Shown in pieces: positions 1 to 36,601 of a stretch of 64,000 bases of DNA. Where the stretch lies: the NCBI GenBank assembly GCA_963663815.1, contig OY760734.1. One strand, written 5' to 3'. Position 1 is the first letter of the stretch, and each line of letters opens with the position of its first letter. The notes under the pieces are model-generated. The model was not told the origin of the DNA. It searched no databases and was given only the letters and a program-made list of their open reading frames with translations. The translations under genes and the position numbers were made by a program. The DNA is from Vicinamibacterales bacterium (GTDB lineage: Bacteria; Acidobacteriota; Vicinamibacteria; Vicinamibacterales; UBA8438).

Positions 1-741
1 CCCGGTGCGCCGCCTCTGCGCGGCGACTCGCCTCCTCCCGGGGGATCGATGATGACGGTCCAGGCGGCGGCGGGCGGGCTGGCCGCGGCCCCGGTCGACG
101 TCTATCCGCCCCTGGGTGCCGCGGAGGTGACGGAGCAGTCGGGCGCGAGCTCGGCCGCGGTGGCGCGGTGGGGCGAGGTCCCGGAGGGTGCCGACCTGGT
201 CTACCAAGGCCGGATGCTCCAGGCGACGCTCCAGACGCAGCTCTCGGGCGAGTTCACGGGTCCGGTGCGGGCGCTGGTGTCGATCCCGGTGTGGTCCCGC
301 GACCGGCGGCACGTCGTGGTCCCGCGCGGCACGCTTGCGCTGGGCGAGGCGCAGCAGGTGACGGGGGCGTTCCAGGGCCGGCTGGCGGTGGGCTTCGACC
401 GGCTCGTCTTCCCCGACGGGCGCACGGTGCGGATGTCCTTCGCGGGGCTCAACGCCATCGGGGAGGCGGGGCTCGCCGACGAGGTCAACCGGCACTACGT
501 CTCGACGTTCGGTGCGGTGGGCGCGGTGGGGCTTCTGGCGGGCCTGGTGCGCGGCGGCGGGAGCGATTCGTTCTACGACCCGGTGAGCCAGCAGTTCGCG
601 TTGACGGCGACGCAGCTGTTCGACCGCTACATGAACCGGCTGCCGGAGATCACGATCCGGGCCGGGCATCCGATGCGGATCTGGCTGACGCAGGACTTGA
701 TCGTGCCTCGCGGCGACGCGGGCCGGGAGAGGGGGCTCTGA
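1..741 (+). CDS. virB10: TrbI/VirB10 family T4SS core protein (5'-partial)
   Basis: Frame is open from base 1. Motifs GPVRALVSIPVWS..VVVPRGT..G..RLAVGFDRLVFPDG, G.AGLADEVNRHY and PEITIRAG..MRIWLTQDL match the VirB10 C-terminal domain. Confidence 0.85.
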   Translation, partial: PGAPPLRGDSPPPGGSMMTVQAAAGGLAAAPVDVYPPLGAAEVTEQSGASSAAVARWGEVPEGADLVYQGRMLQATLQTQLSGEFTGPVRALVSIPVWSRDRRHVVVPRGTLALGEAQQVTGAFQGRLAVGFDRLVFPDGRTVRMSFAGLNAIGEAGLADEVNRHYVSTFGAVGAVGLLAGLVRGGGSDSFYDPVSQQFALTATQLFDRYMNRLPEITIRAGHPMRIWLTQDLIVPRGDAGRERGL

Positions 742-1706
742 TGACGAGGAAGACGCGGCTGGCGTGGGCGGTGGCGTTGATGCTGGTGGTGGTGCTGGTC
801 GGTACTCGCCGGCCTGCGCAGGCGTTCCTCGGCCTCGACCCTGCCTCGTGGATCGTGGTGGGACAGATGGCGTCGGTGGTGTCGCAGATGGTGGCGGTGC
901 GGGACAGCATGATGCGGCTGCGCGACGAGGCGCTCAGCCACGCGCGGGGGTTGATCGAGCCGGTGGACGACTTCGCGGGGGAGCTGAGGGCCGCGCTCAA
1001 GGGCGGCGACTGGTCGGCGTTCAACGCCGGCGACATCCCGCATCCCGAGGACACCGAGATCGGGGCCTGTCCCGGCGGCGCGCTGCCCCAGACGGGGTCG
1101 GTGGCGGAACGGGTGTGCGTCCCCGACGACCTGCCCGAGCTGACCGCGGACATGGCCGGTGACGGCGTGCCCGCGGAGGCCGCGGAGGCGTTCCGGCTGA
1201 GGCAGGCGCTGGTGGAGGCGGATCATGACCGGGTGCGGTCGGAGAGCGAGTACGCGCGGCAGCTGGTGGATGCGGCGGCGGTGAAGATCGCGAACTGGCA
1301 CGGGTGCGAGACGGACCCGGGGCCGGGCTCGAGCGCCATGCGGTGTCCCGACGGGGTCGCGGAGACCGAGGGCGGCCGGGCGCAACTGCTCGACGCCCTG
1401 GATGCGCTCTCGTCGGCGGACTGCTCGGCGGAAGGCGGGGATGGAGCGGACGGCACGTGCCCGTCGATGGCGCAGCTGCGGTCGCTGATGGTGACGGGGT
1501 TGCAGTCGATGGCGTCGTTCGCGGCGGCGGAAGCGGAGATCGAGGCGGCGGAGCTGGACATCGCGCGGCGGGACGAGGAGGCGCGGCTGCTGCAGGAGGC
1601 GCTCCGCCGGCAGGCGGCGATCGAGAGCCTCGAAGGCATCGAGGAGCTCTTCGACGCCGACGTGTCGAGTCCGGCGTTTGCGGGCGGGCCCTTGGCCGGC
1701 TGGTGA
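741..1706 (+). CDS. Exported protein, TrbJ/VirB5-like (tentative)
   Basis: ATG at 741 overlaps the virB10 stop (TGATG). Signal peptide ending AQA, then QMASVVSQM helical segment and several Cys. Lies between virB10 and virB6. Confidence 0.45.
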   Translation: MTRKTRLAWAVALMLVVVLVGTRRPAQAFLGLDPASWIVVGQMASVVSQMVAVRDSMMRLRDEALSHARGLIEPVDDFAGELRAALKGGDWSAFNAGDIPHPEDTEIGACPGGALPQTGSVAERVCVPDDLPELTADMAGDGVPAEAAEAFRLRQALVEADHDRVRSESEYARQLVDAAAVKIANWHGCETDPGPGSSAMRCPDGVAETEGGRAQLLDALDALSSADCSAEGGDGADGTCPSMAQLRSLMVTGLQSMASFAAAEAEIEAAELDIARRDEEARLLQEALRRQAAIESLEGIEELFDADVSSPAFAGGPLAGW

Positions 1707-3863: not shown

Positions 3864-4496
3864 ATGGCCGGTGCGCGGGAGTTCGCGGAGATCTGGGGCG
3901 AGGAGATGCATCGTGCGCGTCAGTACCGCGCGGTGGTGTTGCTGCTGGCGTTGGGGGTGACGGCGTCGGGGGCGGGGCACTGCGCGGCCGCGCTCCAGCC
4001 CGAGCCGCCGCCGCTCGTGGTGCGGGTCGACGAGGTGGGGCGCGCCGAGGTGGTGGACTACCTGCCGGAGGCGGTGGCGCCGACGTCGCCGGAGACGCTC
4101 TTCTTCATCCGGCGCTTCGTGATCGACCAGTACGAGCGGCGCGCGGCGGTGGTGGAGGAGCGCTGGGGCCGGTCGTTCCACTTCGTGTCGCAGTCGGTGG
4201 CGGACGCTCTCGTGGTGGAGCATTCCGGCGAGGTGACCGGTTACCTGTCGGGCCGGTTGACCGCCGAGGTGCGGGTGGAGGACGTGGCGATCCGGGTGGT
4301 CCCGGGCCTCGAGCCTCCCTACGGCGCGGAGGTCCGGTTCGACCGGGTGACCTACGTGGCGGGGCGGGAAACCGCGCGAACCGGCGTCACGCTGGGGTTG
4401 CAGTTCTCGTTCACGGCGGTGGACCGGGCGCTCGTCTTCGACAACCCGATCGGGCTCGTGATCAGTTTCCTTGAGGCCAGCGAGGTGGTGCGGTGA
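3864..4496 (+). CDS. virB8: VirB8/TrbF family protein
   Basis: N-terminal TM, VVRVDEVGRAEVV motif, FIRRFV and C-terminal DNPIGLVISFL. Confidence 0.75.
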   Translation: MAGAREFAEIWGEEMHRARQYRAVVLLLALGVTASGAGHCAAALQPEPPPLVVRVDEVGRAEVVDYLPEAVAPTSPETLFFIRRFVIDQYERRAAVVEERWGRSFHFVSQSVADALVVEHSGEVTGYLSGRLTAEVRVEDVAIRVVPGLEPPYGAEVRFDRVTYVAGRETARTGVTLGLQFSFTAVDRALVFDNPIGLVISFLEASEVVR

Positions 4497-5509
4497 TGGA
4501 GAGTGGGGAGGCGCGGGCGCGGTCGGAAGAGATGGCCGGTCGGCTCCGGGAGAAGTTCGGGCTGGACCAGATGGAGGCAGAGTTCGTCGTGCTCGTCGGC
4601 CGGAGCGGGGGGGTGTGTTTGGTGCGCCAGGCGGAATCGTGGTGTCGCGGTCGCGGTTTACCGGCGGCTCGGAGAACAGCCTTCAGGTGGATCGCCGACC
4701 TCCACGACAAGCTGGGCACGGCGTTCGAGACCTTCCCTCTCCAGCGCGAGGGCACGCGCAGCGTGCAGGTGCATCAGCTCGTGGGCAAGAAGGTCTACCG
4801 GGAGCTCGGCATGGAGAACAGCCGCTGGCGCTACCCGGCGGAGAAGAAGGCGACGCTGGTGGAGGTCAAGCGGCGGCTGGTGCGCGTCGGCGCGGTCCTG
4901 TCCCGCTGGTGGTATCCGTGGCTCGGCACGGTGGAGGCGTCCGTGGGATGGTGCGACGCCCTGGGAATCGACCGCGCCGTGCTTCCGCAAAAGGGCTATC
5001 GGGCCCGTCGAGAAGTTGTGCCGCTGGAGGAGACGGCGGCCAGGGAGCGCCCGAGCTACTTCCCTGACCGCTCCCCGCACGCCGCCGACGGGAACGTTTC
5101 CCTGTTCGTGTACCCGCTGGTGGTCGAGGAGCGTGACGAGAGCGAGGGGCTGCGGAAGTGGTGCCGGAGCTATGCCCCGCTGTGGCAGGCCTTGGGCCGT
5201 GTGGGCGTGCAGACGACGGTCGTCGTGGCGCGTAGCGCGCAGACCCTGTCGGTGCCGGTCGCGGACGTGATGAGCGGCTGGGAGGCGTCCGGCGAGAGCC
5301 ACCGGGCGGTCCGGGGCATCTGGTTCGATACCCAGCTCGACTACGTGCTCGCGGGGAACGCCCCGGCCGTGCTCGAGGCGCACGGCGGGCCGGAAGGTGT
5401 CGCGCGCCGCCGTCGGGAGCTGGCGGCGGCGATCGAGGAGGCGCGGTCGGAAGTGGGTCCCGGGGTGGCGAAGACCGAGGAGCTCGTGCTGGAGGAGGTG
5501 CCGGCATGA
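4496..5509 (+). CDS. Hypothetical cytoplasmic protein between virB8 and virD4; candidate relaxase-like protein
   Basis: Coupled at both ends (TGATG, ATGA), no TM. N-terminal helical/wHTH-like segment and YFPD motif. Function is inferred from position only. Confidence 0.6.
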   Translation: MESGEARARSEEMAGRLREKFGLDQMEAEFVVLVGRSGGVCLVRQAESWCRGRGLPAARRTAFRWIADLHDKLGTAFETFPLQREGTRSVQVHQLVGKKVYRELGMENSRWRYPAEKKATLVEVKRRLVRVGAVLSRWWYPWLGTVEASVGWCDALGIDRAVLPQKGYRARREVVPLEETAARERPSYFPDRSPHAADGNVSLFVYPLVVEERDESEGLRKWCRSYAPLWQALGRVGVQTTVVVARSAQTLSVPVADVMSGWEASGESHRAVRGIWFDTQLDYVLAGNAPAVLEAHGGPEGVARRRRELAAAIEEARSEVGPGVAKTEELVLEEVPA

Positions 5510-7611
5510 TGGCCTATCTGGGGCGGCTGCTGACCTGGAAGTTCAACGCCGCGGTCGCGGTGACGGTGGCATGGTGCTGGTACTTCCCCTGGCCGTCGGA
5601 GGACCCGGCGGTGAGGCTCGTGCGGCTTCAGTCGCCGATGTGGCACGAGGCGCTCCGCGCGTGGTCGCTGGTGAGCCCGGGCGTCATCGTGCTGATTCTC
5701 GCGCTCATCGCGGAGTCGGTGAAGCGGGTGTGGTTCGAGTCGTACGTCTCGGAGGTATTCGGGCGCGGGGAGCTGCCGGCCTGGCCGCAGTCGCCGGACG
5801 ACCCCGACCCGTCGCTCGTGATCGGCGAGCAGCACCATCGGACGCGGTTCGAGGAGGTCCGGAACCCCCGCTGGCTGGTGATACCGAAGAAGGGCCTGTT
5901 CACCGGGCTTCTGATCCTGGGGGCGGTCGGCACGGGGAAGACGGCCGGCTGCATGCGCCCCTTCGTGCGCCAGCTCCTGACGTGGCGGGCCCGCGACAGG
6001 GAGAAGCGCGCGGCGGCGCTCTGCCTGGAGGTCAAGGGCGACTTCTGCTTCGACGTGAAGAAGATGCTGGACGACTGCGGCCGGTCGGAGGACTACATCG
6101 AGCTGAACATGGAGCCGTCCGGCTACGCGTGGAACCCGCTCGCGGCGCCGTGGCTGGACCCCTCGTCGCTGGCCGGCACGATCGCCTCGCTCATCAACCA
6201 GCTCTACGGCAAGGGGAAGGAGCCGTTCTGGCAGCAGGCGTATACGGCGTTCGCGCAGTGGGTGATCGTCTTGAAACGGCTGGAGTATCCGTCGTGGGTG
6301 ACGATGGCGGACCTGTACCACTACGTGCTCGAGGAGGAGAGGATCACCGAGGGCATCGCGGCGATGAAGAAGCGCCTCGACGAGCGGTGGGCGAGTCCGG
6401 ACAGGGTCGACGTGTGCGTCGACGCCGAGCTGTACGAGGCTCACTCGGAGAAGCTCGCGAACTGGGTGTGGGAGCCGGCCAGCAACGGCCGGATGGCGGC
6501 GCGGATCGCGGAGGGCCGCGAGGACCAGGTCGAGCGCGCGGTCGAGGACTGCCGGCACCACCTCGGCGACGAGCCGGAGGTGTACCGGGTGGGCTACAGC
6601 GACGCCGAGCCCGGGCACACGAAGGAAGAGTACGAACAGATGGAGTTGACCCAGCGCGGCGAGCTCGAGTCGGTCGAGCTGTGGCTGGAGAAGGACTGGA
6701 AGCAGCTGGCGGAGCAGACGCGCACGAACGTGGCGACGGGTCTGTCGGTGTTCCTGGGGATGTTCGACCTGCCGGAGGTGAAGGCGAAGTTCTGCCCGCC
6801 GTGCCCGGACCCGACCGGGAAGAAGGGAGTCCCGGTCGGCGGCGGGGCCAGGGCGAGGGCGGCCGCGCGCCTGAAGCCGCTGCCTTCTCTGGATCAGCTG
6901 ATCGAGCAGGGCAGGGTAGTCGCCCTGAACCTGCCGGCGGGGAAGAACCCGAACCTCGGGCGGGTGATCGGGGTGATGCTCAAGCAGGGGTGGCTCGGTA
7001 CTCTGCTGCTGCGGCCGGAGAGGATGGCGAAGCGGCCAGGATGGGAGCCGCGTCCGGCGGTGTTCATCTGCGACGAGTACCAGGCGTTCGTCACGGCGGG
7101 CGAGGGCGGCGATGGCGGCGACGACAAGGCGTTCTCGTTGACGCGGCAGTCGCGGTGCATCCCGATCGTGGCGACGCAGTCGTTGTCGAGCCTGCGCTCC
7201 GTGCTGGGGAGCTCGGAGGCGTGGCGGACGTTGCTTCAGACGCTGCGGAGCCGCATCTACCTGTCTCAGGCGGACGACCAGTCGGCCAAGATCGCGAGCG
7301 ACCTGTGCGGGCAGGTGTCGCGGATGCGCGAGAGCTGGTCGGTGCAGGAGCAGACGGGCCGGGCCGGAGCGAGCCTGCTTTCGGGGAGGATCGGCGGGGC
7401 GGGGACGTCGGCGGGCATCACGAAGTCGTTCCAGGACCGGAAGGAGGCGCTCTTCGGCGCGCGGGAGTTCACGGTGCTGGAGAACTACTCGGGCATCGCT
7501 CAGATCTTCGACGGGAACGAGGTCCACGACGCGACCCGGGTCTATCTGAAGCCCGACTACGTGGCCAAGGACCTGACGTACTGGCGGGCTCGGGAAGCGG
7601 GGAAGCTCTGA
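5506..7611 (+). CDS. virD4: Type IV coupling protein (VirD4/TraG-TraD family ATPase)
   Basis: N-terminal TMs, Walker A GAVGTGKT, Walker B FICDEYQ, IVATQS motif. Confidence 0.87.
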   Translation: MMAYLGRLLTWKFNAAVAVTVAWCWYFPWPSEDPAVRLVRLQSPMWHEALRAWSLVSPGVIVLILALIAESVKRVWFESYVSEVFGRGELPAWPQSPDDPDPSLVIGEQHHRTRFEEVRNPRWLVIPKKGLFTGLLILGAVGTGKTAGCMRPFVRQLLTWRARDREKRAAALCLEVKGDFCFDVKKMLDDCGRSEDYIELNMEPSGYAWNPLAAPWLDPSSLAGTIASLINQLYGKGKEPFWQQAYTAFAQWVIVLKRLEYPSWVTMADLYHYVLEEERITEGIAAMKKRLDERWASPDRVDVCVDAELYEAHSEKLANWVWEPASNGRMAARIAEGREDQVERAVEDCRHHLGDEPEVYRVGYSDAEPGHTKEEYEQMELTQRGELESVELWLEKDWKQLAEQTRTNVATGLSVFLGMFDLPEVKAKFCPPCPDPTGKKGVPVGGGARARAAARLKPLPSLDQLIEQGRVVALNLPAGKNPNLGRVIGVMLKQGWLGTLLLRPERMAKRPGWEPRPAVFICDEYQAFVTAGEGGDGGDDKAFSLTRQSRCIPIVATQSLSSLRSVLGSSEAWRTLLQTLRSRIYLSQADDQSAKIASDLCGQVSRMRESWSVQEQTGRAGASLLSGRIGGAGTSAGITKSFQDRKEALFGAREFTVLENYSGIAQIFDGNEVHDATRVYLKPDYVAKDLTYWRAREAGKL

Positions 7612-7627: not shown

Positions 7628-8887
7628 ATGGAACGGCAGCTCTCGCTCGGGGACCTGGTGGACTTCCTGCCGGAGCTCGGTCCGCTGGTGGCGGACGACT
7701 CGGTGACGGAGATCATGATCAACGGGCCGGGCTCGCTCTATGTGGAGCGCGCCGGCCGGCTGGCGCGCGTCGAGGGGGTCTCGGAGACGTTGACGGAGGC
7801 GTCGCTCCGGTCGGCGGCGATGCAGGTCACGCGGCCGTTGGGGTTCGACCTGCTGCGCGAGTCGCCGATCGTGGACGCGCGCCTCGAGGACGGCTCCCGG
7901 GTGGCGGTGGCGTATCCGCCGGCGACGCCGGAGGTGGCGATCACGATCCGGCGGTTCGGGAGGAAGTTCCTGACGGCGGACGACCTGGTGGGGATGGGCT
8001 CGCTGCCGCGGTCGGTGCTCGAGGCGATGGCGCGGGTGGCGTCGTCGGACGGGAACATCCTGATCGCGGGGGGGACGGGCAGCGGGAAGACGACGCTGCT
8101 GAACGCGGTCGTGGGCCTGCTCCCGCGGGAGGACCGCATCGTGGTCATCGAGGACACGATGGAGATCCGCTGCAACCACCCGAACTGCGTCCGCCTGGAG
8201 GCGCGCGGCGCGTCGGGGGGCGGGGTGGCGGTCCGGGACCTGGTCAGGCACACCCTGCGGCACCGTCCCGACCACATCGTGATCGGCGAGGTCCGCGGGG
8301 CGGAGGCGGGGGACGTCCTCCAGGCGCTGAACACCGGCCACGGCGGTTCGATGACGACGATCCATGCGTCGACGTGCGAGAGCGCGCTGTCGCGGATGGC
8401 GAACTGCGCGATGCAGGCGGGAGACGGTCTGCCGTGGGACGTGACATGCGGGAACGTGGCCCAGGCGTTCTCGATGGTGGTTCGGCAAGCTCGGGTGGGC
8501 GGTGTCCGGGGCGTTCGGGAAGTGCTGTACGTGGACGGCTACGACGCCGTCGAGCGTCGGTGGGTGTTGCGGGAGGCTTGGCGTTCGCCGCGGGCGGCGG
8601 AGCTGGGCACGGACGGTTCGGGGTGGCGTCCCGTCGAAGGCCTGCGAGGCGTGAAGGCGGGTCCCCGGGAGGAGGTGACGGTGGCTTCCCTGCTGTTGGC
8701 GCTGGGCGGCTCGTCGGCGGGGAAGAAGTTGTGGCGTGGCCGCCGCCGGCGGGCAATGGGCAAGGGCGGCCGCGGTCTGGCTGCGATCCCGGTGGTCCGT
8801 CCGCAGCGGGCGGCCGGCGCAGGGAACGGGGACGTGACGGCCGGGGGCGAGGAGGACACGGGGGAGCTCGCCGATGAGCGGGAATAG
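7628..8887 (+). CDS. virB11: VirB11/TrbB/CpaF family traffic ATPase
   Basis: VTEIMING, GGTGSGKTT, VVIEDT, LRHRPDHIVIGEVRG, NTGHGGSMTTIHA. C-terminal ~90 aa is atypical. Confidence 0.9.
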   Translation: MERQLSLGDLVDFLPELGPLVADDSVTEIMINGPGSLYVERAGRLARVEGVSETLTEASLRSAAMQVTRPLGFDLLRESPIVDARLEDGSRVAVAYPPATPEVAITIRRFGRKFLTADDLVGMGSLPRSVLEAMARVASSDGNILIAGGTGSGKTTLLNAVVGLLPREDRIVVIEDTMEIRCNHPNCVRLEARGASGGGVAVRDLVRHTLRHRPDHIVIGEVRGAEAGDVLQALNTGHGGSMTTIHASTCESALSRMANCAMQAGDGLPWDVTCGNVAQAFSMVVRQARVGGVRGVREVLYVDGYDAVERRWVLREAWRSPRAAELGTDGSGWRPVEGLRGVKAGPREEVTVASLLLALGGSSAGKKLWRGRRRRAMGKGGRGLAAIPVVRPQRAAGAGNGDVTAGGEEDTGELADERE

Positions 8888-9146
8888 CCCCACGGCGGAG
8901 GTCCGGCTCGGCCGCATCAAGGCGACGATCTGGACCAACCGGGACAAGGACGGCGGGCGGTGGCACGCGGTGCAGCTGACCCGGCTGTACCAGGACGGCG
9001 ACCAGTGGCGGTGGACGCACACCTTCGGGCGGAACGACCTGCTTGCGGTGGCGAAGGTGGCCGACCTGGCGCACTCGAAGGTGTGCGAGCTGGATGCCTC
9101 CGAGCGAGACCGTGAACGGGCTCCGGCCGAAGAGGCGGAGGCCTGA
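8874..9146 (+). CDS. Small conserved-type protein, probable ssDNA-binding (PC4-like) protein
   Basis: EVRLGRIKATIW.N...VQLTRLYQD.DQW..THTFGRNDLLAVAKV is a pattern recalled from small mobile-element proteins. Acidic C-terminal tail as in SSBs. Confidence 0.6.
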   Translation: MSGNSPTAEVRLGRIKATIWTNRDKDGGRWHAVQLTRLYQDGDQWRWTHTFGRNDLLAVAKVADLAHSKVCELDASERDRERAPAEEAEA

Positions 9147-9234
9147 ATGGCGACCGCCACCATTCTCCAGGGCGCCGTCGTCGGTTTCGCTGATGGTTCT
9201 CTGGTGGTCGGTGCATGTGGGGAGCCGGCGAACC

Positions 9235-9468
9235 GTGGACCTGCTCGGCTGCGTCCTCGGGCTGATCCCGTGCGGCCGGTTGTGGCCGCAGACGGTGTCC
9301 GAGCTCGTGATGCTCGCGACCGTCGTGGTGTTGTGGTTGCTGGTGCTGGCGACCCTGGTGGAAGCGGTGTGGTTGCAGGTCGCGGCCGTGATGTGGTGGA
9401 GGGCGCGGCGCCGCCGCGCCGGCGACAGCGATGCGGGACGGGGCGATGACCCTGGGTGCGAACGGTGA
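9235..9468 (+). CDS. Small membrane protein
   Basis: GGGGAG RBS before GTG. Long hydrophobic segment followed by a basic RARRRR stop-transfer. Confidence 0.35.
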   Translation: MDLLGCVLGLIPCGRLWPQTVSELVMLATVVVLWLLVLATLVEAVWLQVAAVMWWRARRRRAGDSDAGRGDDPGCER

Positions 9469-26481: not shown

Positions 26482-26669
26482 ATGTATTGCCACGTCAACG
26501 TGAAGACGGGCAGCCGCGGCACCGGCCAGTCGGCGGCGAAGTACGACTGCATCAGCGCGCCGGCAAGTACGAGGCGGCCTGCCAGGACGAGGTGGTGCAG
26601 CTCGAGTCGGGTTGCAGGCCGGCGTTCGCGTCGTCGGATCCGCGGTCGTACTGGGCGGCGGCCGACCTC
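26482..26669 (+). pseudogene. mobA: MOBQ (MobA/MobL) relaxase N-terminal remnant
   Basis: HVNVKTGSRGTGQSAAKYDCIS/RAGKY..DEVVQLESG..YWAAADL aligns by eye with the RSF1010 MobA N-terminus. It is frameshifted and truncated, and the catalytic DY is DC. Confidence 0.78.
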
Positions 26670-33884: not shown

Positions 33885-34586
33885 TCAGCGGCTCTCCTCC
33901 TCGAAGCTGCGCAGGTAACGGGACACGGTGATCCGCGCGCAGCCGATCGCCTTCGCGATGCGCCCGAAGCCGAAGCCTTGGGCGCGAAGCTCGACCATGC
34001 GGGCGACGGCCTCGGCCGACATCGGCGGGCGCAGGAACCCGCGCCTGACCGTCACGCGGCCGCGCCGGCGCAGGACCTTCCGGTCGGCGAGGGCCGGCAT
34101 CGAGCGCTCGTCGTCGTCGACGTCGGGCGCGTGCTTCGCCAGCTCGTGCCAGTCGACGGCCGCGCGCGCCGGACCGCCGTCGACGGGCTCGGGGTCCGGC
34201 ATCTGGTCGAGGAGGCCGTCGCCGCCGCGCCACGCGACCTCGAACTCCTGCTCGGGGCTCGCGGCCGACTCGCGGACGACCGTCGTCAGCGGCTCGACCC
34301 GGTGGTAGACGACCGACAGCCCCGTCGTGTGGCCGGCGCCGGTGCGATACGACACGTCGGCGAGAGCCGAGCTCACGGCCGGACTCGCCAGCGCCGCGGC
34401 CAGCGCGGAGCCCTGCAGGCGCAGCTTCGCCGTGACCCGCAGGGCGCGGATCGTCGAGCCGGCGCCGTCGATCGAGCGGACGACGATCTCGGAGCCGACC
34501 CGGAGCGGCCGGCCCTCCCGGAACGGATTCCCGCCGCCGTCGCGGAACCGGTCCCTCCTCGAGTTGCGGACGCGAGTGCTGGCCAT
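33885..34586 (-). CDS. Hypothetical protein with C-terminal HTH
   Basis: GGAGGAG RBS, C-terminal RMVELRAQGFGFGRIAKAIGCARITVSRYL. Homologous remnant at ~61780-62060. Confidence 0.65.
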   Translation of the reverse strand: MASTRVRNSRRDRFRDGGGNPFREGRPLRVGSEIVVRSIDGAGSTIRALRVTAKLRLQGSALAAALASPAVSSALADVSYRTGAGHTTGLSVVYHRVEPLTTVVRESAASPEQEFEVAWRGGDGLLDQMPDPEPVDGGPARAAVDWHELAKHAPDVDDDERSMPALADRKVLRRRGRVTVRRGFLRPPMSAEAVARMVELRAQGFGFGRIAKAIGCARITVSRYLRSFEEESR

Positions 34587-34843
34587 GTTGACTCCTCCTG
34601 CGGCGAGTCGCGTCCGGCCTCATGCCGACCCGCGCTCGTGCGCACACGTCGCGCCGCAGGACCCCTGCCCGCGATTCCGGGGTCAGGGAGCCTCGAAGAG
34701 GACCGCTGCCCGGGGTGTCTAATCGACCGGCCGATGCTTTTCGGCGCCGGCGTTCAGGCCGGCCGGCCCGGGAGAGCGGTCCCTCGTCGGACACGGCGGT
34801 GGTGGTGGGGAGGGCGGTGTTGGTGGTGGGGAGGAGCCGGCCT

Positions 34844-34864
34844 GCGGCGAAGCCGCGTTTTTTT
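34844..34864 (+). terminator. Intrinsic terminator-like hairpin
   Basis: GCGGC-GAA-GCCGC followed by G and a T7 run. Confidence 0.45.
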
Positions 34865-35165
34865 GCCGGCGCCGTCAAGGTGAACGAGCGGAGATTCGAC
34901 GGCCCGGGCGTTCAGCGGCGGCGATCGCTCTTCGTTCAGCCGTCCTTGACGCCGGAATCTGCGAGAGGCGCACCCGTTTGGCCGGCCCGCTCTTCAGGCC
35001 GGCCGGGTGCGCCGTCGCAAGGGCAGGGGTTCGCCGCCCATCCCGTGGCCGTCGCCCTTCACGGCCACGGGATGGAGGCCGGACCGCAGTTCCAGGTCCG
35101 GCCGTGGGCGGCGTCCGCCCCGCCGGCGGAGCCGGCGTTCGGAGCGGGTTGGTCTTCAACCCGCT
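34844..35165. promoter_or_regulatory. Dense cluster of strong hairpins (candidate ssDNA promoter/sso/oriT or structured RNA)
   Basis: At least seven inverted repeats, including a perfect 15-bp stem at 35038-35075 and a GTCAAGG/CCTTGAC-closed stem at 34874-34950. Confidence 0.5.
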
Positions 35166-35294
35166 GCGGGGGCGGATGGGACGACTGTGCGTGCAAGCCA
35201 ACCTCTCGACTTGGCACGGCGTGAGCAGGGGGAGGACGGGGCGGCACGCCCCCGAAGCGGCGGGCCGGCCGACCCGCACGCGGGTCGCGGCGGA

Positions 35295-35360
35295 CGGATC
35301 GGCTACAGCGCGGCCCGAGTCGCTCGCGTCGTCTGGAAGCTCGACCGCCTCGGCCGGAAC
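35295..35360 (+). pseudogene. Serine resolvase remnant (internally deleted)
   Basis: RIGY..ARV joined directly to VVWKLDRLGR. Confidence 0.6.
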
Positions 35361-35711
35361 CCGTCCATCCAGTCAACACCGTGCTGTCGGCCCGCGGGGT
35401 GGCCTGCGCGCAGCGGTTCGAGGAACGCGGTAGGCGAGACGGTGGCGACCTCGGTCGAGGCGATGCCGTGAGCGGTGTTGTTGGTGTGGCAGATGACGCG
35501 GCTCCAGGCCCGGGGCAGCGGCCAGGCGTAGGAACGGGGCAGCGACGTGAGGTGCGCCACGGCGGCCTGGTCAAGGAGGAGGCTGGTGTCGATGGTCGCC
35601 TCGGGATCGCGCCCAAGGGCCGTCCTTGAGGCAATGGCCGCAGTCTCCCTCCTTCCGCGGAGCGGACAAGTCCAGCCTGAGCGACCCCGCGGTGCTGACC
35701 CGGAAGTGGCA

Positions 35712-35865
35712 CCCTGGTGTCACGTTCCGGGTCGGAAACGAGTAGTACGTAGCGGGGTCGCTCAGGTGTTGAGTGTCATCCTCATGCTGACCCAATCGGT
35801 ATCGCTTACCAAGAAGAAGCCTATTTATGTCAGAGGTTTAGGCTCGGTTACACTTGACACCAGGG
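35712..35865. other. AT-richer segment bounded by an 11-bp inverted repeat; att-like
   Basis: CCCTGGTGTCA (35712-35722) and TGACACCAGGG (35855-35865) with internal TGTCA motifs, just upstream of an integrase remnant. Confidence 0.35.
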
Positions 35866-35939
35866 CCGGCGCTGCCGTGACATTTGGGACAGGTCGATGA
35901 ATGTCACCGCTCGGGTCATTGTTGGTGGCACTATCTAAG

Positions 35940-36270
35940 CGTGGCTGGACGGCAGCAACACCGCGAAGCAGTGGTGGGCCAGCATGCGCGACCACGTGTT
36001 CCCTCACATCGGCGGCAAGACCGTCGACGAGGTCACAACAGCCGACAGCTGCTGCCGATCTGGACCAGCAAGCACGTCACGGCGCGGAAGGTGAGACAGC
36101 GCATCGGCGTCGCCATGCGGTGGGCCATCGCGCAGGGCTGCCGGCAGGGACAACCTGGCCGGCGACGCGATCACGGCGGCTCTGCCGAAACGCTCTACGC
36201 CGGTGGAGCACCGGGCGGCGCTTCCCCACCGGGAGGTCGCCGCCGCCGTCGCCGCGGTCGTTCACTGGCC
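35940..36270 (+). pseudogene. P4-like tyrosine integrase, middle-region remnant
   Basis: AKQWWASMRDHVFPHIG..VDEVT, LLPIWTSK..TARKVRQRIGVAMRWAIAQG, AGDAITAALPK, HRAALPHREV, with frameshifts. Confidence 0.78.
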
Positions 36271-36299
36271 CTTCAGAGCGGCCTGCGGGCCAGCGTCCG

Positions 36300-36601
36300 T
36301 CTCTGGGCTCGGCTCACGGTTGATCAACGCCTTCGCTCCTTGCCGGGCGTGAAGTAGGCGGCGCGCTTCGACGGCACGTCCACCCAGTCGCCGGTCCTGG
36401 GGTTGCGTCCTTGGTGCGACTCGCGGCACCGGAATCGGAAACTGCCGAAGCCCCGGAATTCGACCTTCTCCTCCCTGTGCAGCGCCGCCAGGATGCTGCC
36501 CAAGACAGCCTCGACGGTCAGTACCGCGTGCGTCTTCGGGAGATCGGCGACATCGGCCACTTCCTCGGCGAGCGCTGCCTTCGTCAGGCTCCTTCCGTCA
36601 T
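36300..36601 (-). pseudogene. IHF/HU family gene with two 1-nt deletions (paralog of 59182-59508)
   Basis: LTKAAL..KVEFRGFGSF..GRNPRTG..VDVPSKR.AYFTPGKE. Start and KALINR end are out of frame. Confidence 0.8.

Follow-up and report, generated by a model that had tools for sequence, protein, structure and literature searches.

A conserved VirD4-coupled DNA-binding protein as candidate for the relaxase-type protein of an acidobacterial integrative conjugative element

Which protein prepares the DNA of an acidobacterial conjugative element for transfer? The question is raised by a 64,000-nucleotide stretch of contig OY760734.1 from a Vicinamibacterales bacterium (hereafter the window; C1:1502031-1566030 within the 6.95-Mb genome), which carries part of an integrative conjugative element (ICE) with a type IV secretion system (T4SS) and, between virB8 and virD4, a gene for a 337-aa protein, here called the target. 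Acidobacteriota are among the most abundant soil bacteria, and to our knowledge conjugation in this phylum is essentially unstudied. Guglielmini et al. (2013) recorded one acidobacterial system of mating-pair formation type T (MPF_T), with nothing known about it there (PMC3548315). The target is the best candidate for the missing relaxase-type protein of the ICE. It is a cytoplasmic, conserved and VirD4-coupled protein that binds DNA sequence-specifically, and its two domains are predicted to have an architecture like that of Replic_Relax. Coupled to VirD4, it would serve DNA transfer, probably as a relaxase of MOBC-like type, though an adaptor without catalytic activity is also possible. To the full reading, in which the target is the DNA-transfer (Dtr) protein of the ~59-kb ICE and combines MOBC-like nicking with hand-over to VirD4, we assign a probability of roughly 0.45. 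The target and its neighbors are located in the window as follows.

4496 to 5509, plus strand: target coding sequence, 337 aa (open reading frame listing, GC by codon position, overlaps, purifying selection)
3864 to 4496, plus strand: virB8 (PF04335; Pfam), the stop of which overlaps the target start
5506 to 7611, plus strand: virD4, coupling protein (PF10412, PF12696; Pfam/NCBIfam), the start of which overlaps the target stop
7628 to 8887, plus strand: virB11, ATPase (PF00437; Pfam/NCBIfam)

A conserved gene of the T4SS operon

The region 4496-5509 is a real coding gene. Its GC content at codon positions 1, 2 and 3 (0.74/0.51/0.88) is typical of genuine genes in this genome, which has 70% GC, and the frame plot switches cleanly at both ends. 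Translation may start at the in-frame ATG at 4496 (337 aa) or at an alternative GTG at 4493 (338 aa); the ATG is the likely start, as homologs in the subfamily alignment begin with MESGEA. Residue numbering follows the 338-aa form (P0001, GTG start). A first-pass annotation, made from the sequence alone, had described the protein as coupled to both virB8 and virD4, and the junctions bear this out: the virB8 stop TGA (4494-4496) shares one base, the A, with the target ATG, and the target stop TGA (5507-5509) overlaps the virD4 ATG at 5506 as ATGA, a 4-nt overlap. VirB6 (PF04610; Pfam) is also among the products of the flanking genes. For the target itself, searches in Pfam, NCBIfam, PHROGs and PDB sequences returned zero matches, and the family profiles likewise yielded nothing usable.

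A profile search in 1.8 billion representative proteins identified 307 relatives at E<=1e-3, mostly of ~320 aa and 20-30% identical, and a scan of one genome per species located 420 genomic loci, the best 80 of which form the basis of the locus statistics given here. Among these best loci, 79 belong to Acidobacteriota (Terriglobia, Bryobacterales and others) and the remaining one to a Dehalococcoidia metagenome-assembled genome; many loci per genome are often seen. Close relatives (60-93% identity) occupy the same cluster in other genomes of ~7 Mb, three times in one of them, with two exceptions that resemble decayed or rearranged elements. The order VirB10-VirB6-VirB8-gene-VirD4-VirB11, determined by tblastn with the window proteins, is kept in more than 60 of the 80 loci and across target identities from 93% to 25%; in distant loci the target homolog is 25-30% identical, VirB8 ~36% and VirD4 ~44%. 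Adjacency to virD4, proposed by the first-pass annotation as a check, was found in the great majority of the 80 sampled loci. The same annotation had called the gene an orphan; instead, the family found at ~420 loci is a core gene of the acidobacterial ICE/T4SS operon and is conserved like the T4SS core genes.

The genome contains three copies of the ICE, A (this window), B and C, and a further target paralog, D. Between the ICE copies, the target is under purifying selection (dN/dS 0.26-0.28). Its dS, at 0.37-0.44, reaches 4-5 times the values for virD4, virB8 and virB11 from these copies, and variation within the subfamily alignment peaks in the region of the predicted recognition helix. High dS, a dN/dS of ~0.27 and a variable helix together suggest that the target is an exchanged specificity allele and not a decaying gene.

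No canonical relaxase accompanies this gene. Six-frame scans of the whole genome identified no gene for MOBP (PF03432), MOBF (PF08751), MOBH (PF07514), MOBV (PF01076) or MOBT (PF02486) and none for MOBC (PF13814), for which a single sub-threshold match occurred elsewhere in the genome. MobA_MobL (PF03389) matched in three places only, on contigs C3 and C4 and in ICE copy C after virB11. The target itself gave no Pfam/NCBIfam match to the HUH relaxase families MOBF/P/Q/V (PF03432, PF08751, PF03389, PF01076), and scans of the remaining ICE open reading frames with the same databases found no relaxase. The earlier statement that the window holds no intact HUH relaxase therefore stands, as the only trace is a fragment in the cargo region:

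~26482 to 26666, plus strand: N-terminal remnant of a MobA/MobL (MOBQ) relaxase, 60 codons, non-functional (genome scan)

A canonical relaxase located upstream and co-occurring in all homologous clusters would have argued against the target, but none was found in the 20 kb preceding the window or among the genes conserved in the relatives' clusters. Copies A and B carry no MOBQ or other canonical relaxase, and nearly all relatives are without MOBQ; one locus, L061, carries it. In copy C, the MobA/MobL domain (C1:1711834-1713225) is 94% identical to that on contig C3. It forms an in-frame insertion, flanked by short direct repeats, before the counterpart of the gene at window 8874-9146, indicating a recent acquisition. 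The gene at 8874-9146 encodes 90 aa and is kept after virB11 in many distant loci, and for this reason may represent a relaxosome or translocation-signal module.

Architecture, recognition words and cis site

An initial AlphaFold2 run on a shallow alignment of 20 sequences was confident for the winged helix-turn-helix (wHTH) only and was replaced by a run on a 100-sequence alignment (pLDDT 91.2, pTM 0.88). The resulting model confirmed the N-terminal wHTH that had been anticipated in the first-pass annotation. The parts of the protein are as follows.

4568 to 4783, plus strand: N-terminal wHTH, aa ~26-97 (AlphaFold2; fold matches of MarR/PadR type; weak MarR Pfam matches in relatives)
4670 to 4723, plus strand: predicted recognition helix, aa 60-77 (hypervariable in the subfamily; the equivalent clade-I helix co-varies with DNA words)
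4856 to 5491, plus strand: C-terminal alpha/beta domain, aa ~122-333 (AlphaFold2; order a-b-(a)-b-b-a-b)
5474 to 5506, plus strand: conserved acidic C-terminal tail KTEELVLEEVPA (homolog alignment; overlaps the virD4 start)

In the model, the C-terminal domain consists of helix 122-137, a short strand, helix 147-156, strands 196-199 and 202-209, helix 217-236, strand 240-248, further helices and a final strand 326-333, an order that is compatible with a PD-(D/E)xK/Replic_Relax-like core. The acidic tail of the target is reminiscent of the tails that serve contacts with type IV coupling proteins. The top fold match in BFVD was gp146 of Bacillus phage G (probability 1.00, 263 aligned columns), and proteins of phages JL and 0305phi8-36, which are gp146 homologs by tblastn, were also within the top 11. 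The protein gp146 belongs to PF13814, Replic_Relax (E 4e-25). The modeled likeness to Replic_Relax is one of whole architecture, not of sequence, and we class the target as a variant within the MOBC/Replic_Relax kind.

In CONJscan, the PF13814 domain goes by the name MobC, and genes of the MOBC type are found paired with VirD4 (PMC5357655); MOBC relaxases are related to PD-(D/E)xK enzymes and carry an N-terminal winged helix (PMC12857230, PMC6736028, PMC3424549). Like TraX of pAD1 and MobC of CloDF13, the target is predicted to combine an N-terminal winged helix with a C-terminal alpha/beta domain of an order compatible with the PD-(D/E)xK type, lacks the HUH motif and is encoded next to a VirD4-type coupling protein. 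It differs from these proteins in that its gene sits inside an MPF_T-like operon between virB8 and virD4 and in that its family belongs to Acidobacteriota, whereas the hosts of MOBC/PF13814 proteins are Bacillota, Actinomycetota and Proteobacteria. The gp146/SPO1 gp27.3 family (PF13814) is similar in length (274 vs 337 aa), and its genes adjoin a gene for a VirD4/TraG-like ATPase and, in some phages, a tyrosine recombinase; however, identity to the target is 8-12%, the context is a phage and not a T4SS operon, and the function is predicted only. In the Bacillus phages Thrax5, pW2, JL and G, the Replic_Relax gene lies directly beside that for the ATPase of ~900 aa. In Thrax5 and pW2 a tyrosine recombinase gene adjoins as well, and the same trio occurs in many acidobacterial loci. 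A tblastn search of plasmids with gp146 and with the target gave no match.

The family falls into two clades. Clade I comprises 87 of the 100 aligned sequences, and clade II includes the target, paralog D and P0047. The clades are homologous, since a clade-I profile finds all four copies of the target's own genome at E 1e-24 to 1e-34. In clade I, the gene and virD4 are separated by a conserved spacer of ~360 bp (e.g., in L032, L043, L055, L059 and L072, at ~8930-9330). This spacer contains a G8 run and 2-5 copies of a locus-specific TG-NNN-CA word in direct and inverted orientation (shuffled spacers: mean 0.7, maximum 2). It further contains a hairpin of ~105 nt (DNA fold -55.6 kcal/mol, z = -4.4), the outer stem of which shows compensatory changes (GACGAGAGCGA/TCGCTCTCGTC, ..GGG../..CCC.., ..ATA../..TAT..), and, 7 nt beyond the hairpin, an invariant 22-mer, ATTTATCCCTGCGGGAAGGCTC, that is present in 70 of the 80 loci. 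No Rfam family matched the spacer. The gene is also kept together with its cis site in loci without T4SS genes. Near one clade-I T4SS locus, a match to group II intron domains D1-D4 was observed (RF02003, 97 bits; L072:1583-1722, minus strand).

Among ~300 alignment columns, mutual information with the word is highest for two (2.13 and 2.09 bits; next 1.61), which are spaced by five residues and lie where the predicted recognition helix begins. For the word CCA, D/K/L is seen in 10 of 11 loci; for CCG, E/K/H in 4 of 7; and for GTA, W/S/Q in 3 of 4. As a control for relatedness, locus pairs were compared within bands of overall protein identity: within each band, both residues agree in 29-74% of the same-word pairs and in 1-8% of the pairs with different words, and among proteins 85-100% identical the values are 74% and 8%. 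This covariation is good computational evidence that the winged helix of the family reads the TG-NNN-CA words at the adjacent cis site. TraX, a MOBC relaxase, binds five direct repeats located 70-120 bp from the nick site nic (PMC12857230), and several short repeated words near a separate conserved site are likewise found in the target's relatives. The clade-I spacer, laid out as described for TraX, is a candidate origin of transfer (oriT); the layout would also fit an operator.

In clade II, the spacer is missing, and intergenic DNA separates the gene from neither of its neighbors. The invariant block was not found by a simple search of the target's ICE, and matches inside virB10 of L003-L005 and at window 58420 were dismissed as chance occurrences without a hairpin. 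A covariance model of hairpin and block detected a 68-bit site in the element of paralog D, 22 kb from its gene, which was part of the training set; this site has an exact copy of the core CCCTGCGGGAAGGCTC and, compared with the invariant block, 2 mismatches in 22 positions. Weaker sites were found in copies B and C (27 and 29 bits) and in copy A:

35651 to 35767, minus strand: hairpin and core resembling the clade-I cis element, 21 bits, rough E 1.6e-4 (covariance model)

We do not claim this site as the oriT of the ICE, as it belongs to a multi-copy repeat family. At least 20 copies of a weaker version of the hairpin are present elsewhere in the genome, at the ends of units of 3-6.5 kb that each encode an HTH_23 protein and two tandem tyrosine recombinases (examples: C1 2306303-2312898, 3220124-3226752 and 819648-826662). 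The units are bounded by direct repeats of ~150-340 nt containing the hairpin (CTGAGCGACCCC...GGGGTCGCTCAG) and TCCGCTCCGCGGAAG. A partial unit with the HTH_23 gene, the hairpin and an integrase fragment lies in the ICE cargo (window 33885-36357). These units may be mobilizable hitchers equipped with a copy of the oriT; alternatively, the hairpin may be a site of recombination. No cluster of repeated words was found that differs among copies A, B and C and could mark a binding site of the target itself.

Relaxase, adaptor or regulator

The proposed mechanism has three steps. The winged helix would recognize element-specific words at an oriT-like site, the C-terminal domain would nick or process the DNA as the MOBC relaxases TraX and MobC do, and the protein would hand the substrate to the adjacent VirD4, perhaps via its conserved acidic tail. 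In the target's branch, the cis site would have moved away from the gene. This relocation, together with the replacement of four charged residues, makes nicking the least secure part of the proposal.

Several results weigh against a relaxase role. By the sequence criterion the target is not a member of PF13814: hmmscan (E<=1) detected the PF13814 profile (gathering score 25.3 bits) neither in the target nor in 45 family members, and hhalign against two Replic_Relax alignments, which were built from phage homologs and to which a large protein database added only 9 close sequences, returned co-linear alignments with probabilities of 0.9%, 0.55% and 0.14%. The profile-profile search suggested in the first-pass annotation thus failed to connect the two families, sequence similarity to MOBC/PF13814 is undetectable, and none to any nuclease is significant. 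MOBC relaxases are characterized by acidic metal-binding residues (the DEE motif; PD...ExD in PF13814) and an essential Tyr (Y181 in TraX). Of the Replic_Relax invariants H134, D174 (PD), E191 and D193 and of E197, which is conserved in >=90% of sequences, none is recognizably kept in the target family, whereas Y102, Y169 and Y189 are conserved throughout it. The structural comparison gave a divided answer, as the best full-length matches of the wHTH and alpha/beta model are Replic_Relax/MOBC proteins, but the match to gp146 had TM values of only 0.37/0.44 (E 8.4e-3), and Foldseek against the PDB matched the winged helix only, weakly, to MarR/PadR-like structures (E 0.2-2) and matched no nuclease. 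Four charged residues that look catalytic in the relatives, D133, E147, E149 and K150, are conserved in 80-97% of the wider family. Clade I keeps D133 (84/87), E147 (70/86), E149 (E or D in 69/87) and K150 (72/87), as well as K193 and D211, whereas clade II has G133 (W in P0047 and paralog D), V147, A149 and S150 in a gap-free, unambiguous stretch, which renders catalysis by the target itself uncertain. P165 is the sole family-wide invariant and no acidic residue is universal. Furthermore, several ICE proteins without annotation (961, 770, 501, 475 and 371 aa) are remaining candidates for the nickase, and the clade-I cis element, which resembles the repeat motif of the tyrosine recombinase units, could be a recombination site and not an oriT.

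Both clades have Y102, R111, R113, R128, W143, P165, Y169, Y189, F190 and P195 in common, and family-wide conservation of polar residues is limited to Tyr and Arg (Y102, R111, R113, R128, Y169, Y189). Clade II has invariants of its own, FPD192, H196, E212 and D215, and the positions of FPD192...E212/D215, immediately ahead of strand 2 and where strand 3 ends, are those of a canonical PD...ExK motif. Active-site migration occurs in PD-(D/E)xK enzymes; judged from the alignment, clade II would either have a migrated active site or not be a metal-dependent nuclease. The motif YFPD..LFVY..EE, to which the first-pass annotation had drawn attention, is present, but its conservation is restricted to the target's own subfamily, and YFPD...EE could be a relocated PD-ExK motif or nothing.

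A MOBC-like relaxase role is the most likely reading for the family. For the target specifically, an adaptor role without catalysis is a serious alternative, although we consider it unlikely overall. Here, the target would be a relaxosome accessory protein or pseudo-nuclease, the wHTH of which binds element-specific DNA and docks it on VirD4, while nicking would be carried out by another, unrecognized protein of the ICE or in trans by a MOBQ relaxase encoded elsewhere in the genome. The loss of D133, E147, E149 and K150 in the target clade, the lack of an invariant acidic residue across the family, the large unannotated ICE proteins and the presence of MOBQ in the clade-I locus L061 and, by acquisition, in copy C would all fit this possibility. 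It is countered by copies A and B and nearly all relatives, which are without MOBQ or any other relaxase, by a predicted fold that is nuclease-family-like along its whole length and by D192, H196, E212 and D215, from which a relocated site could be built. The known accessory proteins TraM, TrwA, PcfF and MobC-Aux likewise bind DNA element-specifically beside oriT and pass it on to the coupling protein; these are, however, mostly small ribbon-helix-helix proteins (PMC12857230), and the target is a 337-aa wHTH protein with an enzyme-like domain. The earlier proposal of a relaxase or relaxosome protein is thus supported by the conserved gene, the lack of a canonical relaxase and the predicted fold, and weakened by the missing PF13814 membership and the replaced charged residues.

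A more far-reaching version of the relaxase reading, which we regard as tentative and somewhat doubtful, would make the family a new MOB type of acidobacterial ICEs. It would have a Replic_Relax-like fold with active-site residues reshuffled between clades and an oriT consisting of the hairpin and the ATTTATCCCTGCGGGAAGGCTC block, its specificity would derive from TG-NNN-CA words read by two helix residues, and the tyrosine recombinase units would be mobilizable hitchers using this oriT.

That the target is a transcription factor, i.e., a repressor or activator of virD4-virB11 with a wHTH that binds operator words and a C-terminal domain that senses a signal, appears quite improbable. The wHTH does resemble MarR/PadR regulators, the clade-I words are located directly upstream of virD4, and Steczkiewicz et al. 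considered Replic_Relax a predicted regulator (PMC3424549). However, MarR/PadR proteins consist of a wHTH and a dimerization helix (~110-150 aa for the whole protein); only the N-terminal ~100 aa of the target are weakly alike, and a further ~220 aa form a separate conserved domain. Moreover, the target clade has no intergenic DNA on either side of the gene, a 105-nt hairpin with an invariant 22-mer is atypical of operators, the pair of gene and site persists in loci without T4SS genes, and the gene order is that known for MOBC-VirD4 pairs (PMC5357655).

Least probable of all is a recombination or replication factor, either an att-binding directionality factor acting with tyrosine recombinases or a nicking initiator for rolling-circle replication of the excised ICE: hairpin and core motifs flank the units with two tandem tyrosine recombinases in this genome, a tyrosine recombinase gene follows virB11 in 24 of the 80 relatives, and RefSeq names phage Replic_Relax genes, some with an adjoining tyrosine recombinase, 'replication initiation by nicking', but the target gene is embedded in and translationally coupled to T4SS genes and not to the integrase/RepA_C module, which lies ~18 kb upstream with its own iterons, and a nicking initiator and a relaxase are not mutually exclusive, as in MOBT NicK (PMC5357655).

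The element and its implications for Acidobacteriota

Comparison of the three copies in the genome, which are 93-96% identical, delimits the element to ~59 kb, from window position -17070 to about 41800. This genome harbors 3-4 copies of the T4SS-bearing ICE family, and up to ~8 occur on one contig elsewhere. Upstream of the window are a PIN gene, an HTH-S24 repressor gene, a RepA_C replication gene with four 22-nt iterons and genes without assignment, followed by genes for VirB3, VirB4, two CagX/VirB9 proteins and TrbI/VirB10; located downstream are unassigned genes (308, 961 and 770 aa), a methyltransferase gene, a topoisomerase gene and cargo. From this gene content we infer an ICE with an MPF_T-like T4SS.

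The RepA_C gene is directly followed by a perfect 11-bp hairpin (L092:6534-6780 = C1:1488564-1488810) and then by four 22-nt direct repeats (TGCTCGTGGGCGAACTACTCAC) and two inverted partial copies, all identical in copies A, B and C. These repeats probably constitute an iteron-type replication origin (oriV), suggesting that the excised ICE could replicate. As a binding site of the target they were rejected, because they are identical in the three copies although the recognition helix differs; they are more likely RepA iterons. In the T4SS operon, the 314-aa gene after virB10 (window 741-1706) showed a dN/dS of 2.2-3.6 between the ICE copies, compared with 0.1-0.4 for each of the other genes tested, which points to diversifying selection on what may be a surface component.

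Tools of the CONJscan type would call the ICE copies 'MOBless', because no relaxase profile fits. If the family represents a relaxase or relaxosome core, hundreds of T4SS loci that look like protein-secretion systems would be reclassified as conjugative elements, and a further profile would be added to MOB typing schemes. Genetic tools for this phylum, in which manipulation is difficult, could then also draw on the protein/DNA-word code and the candidate oriT.

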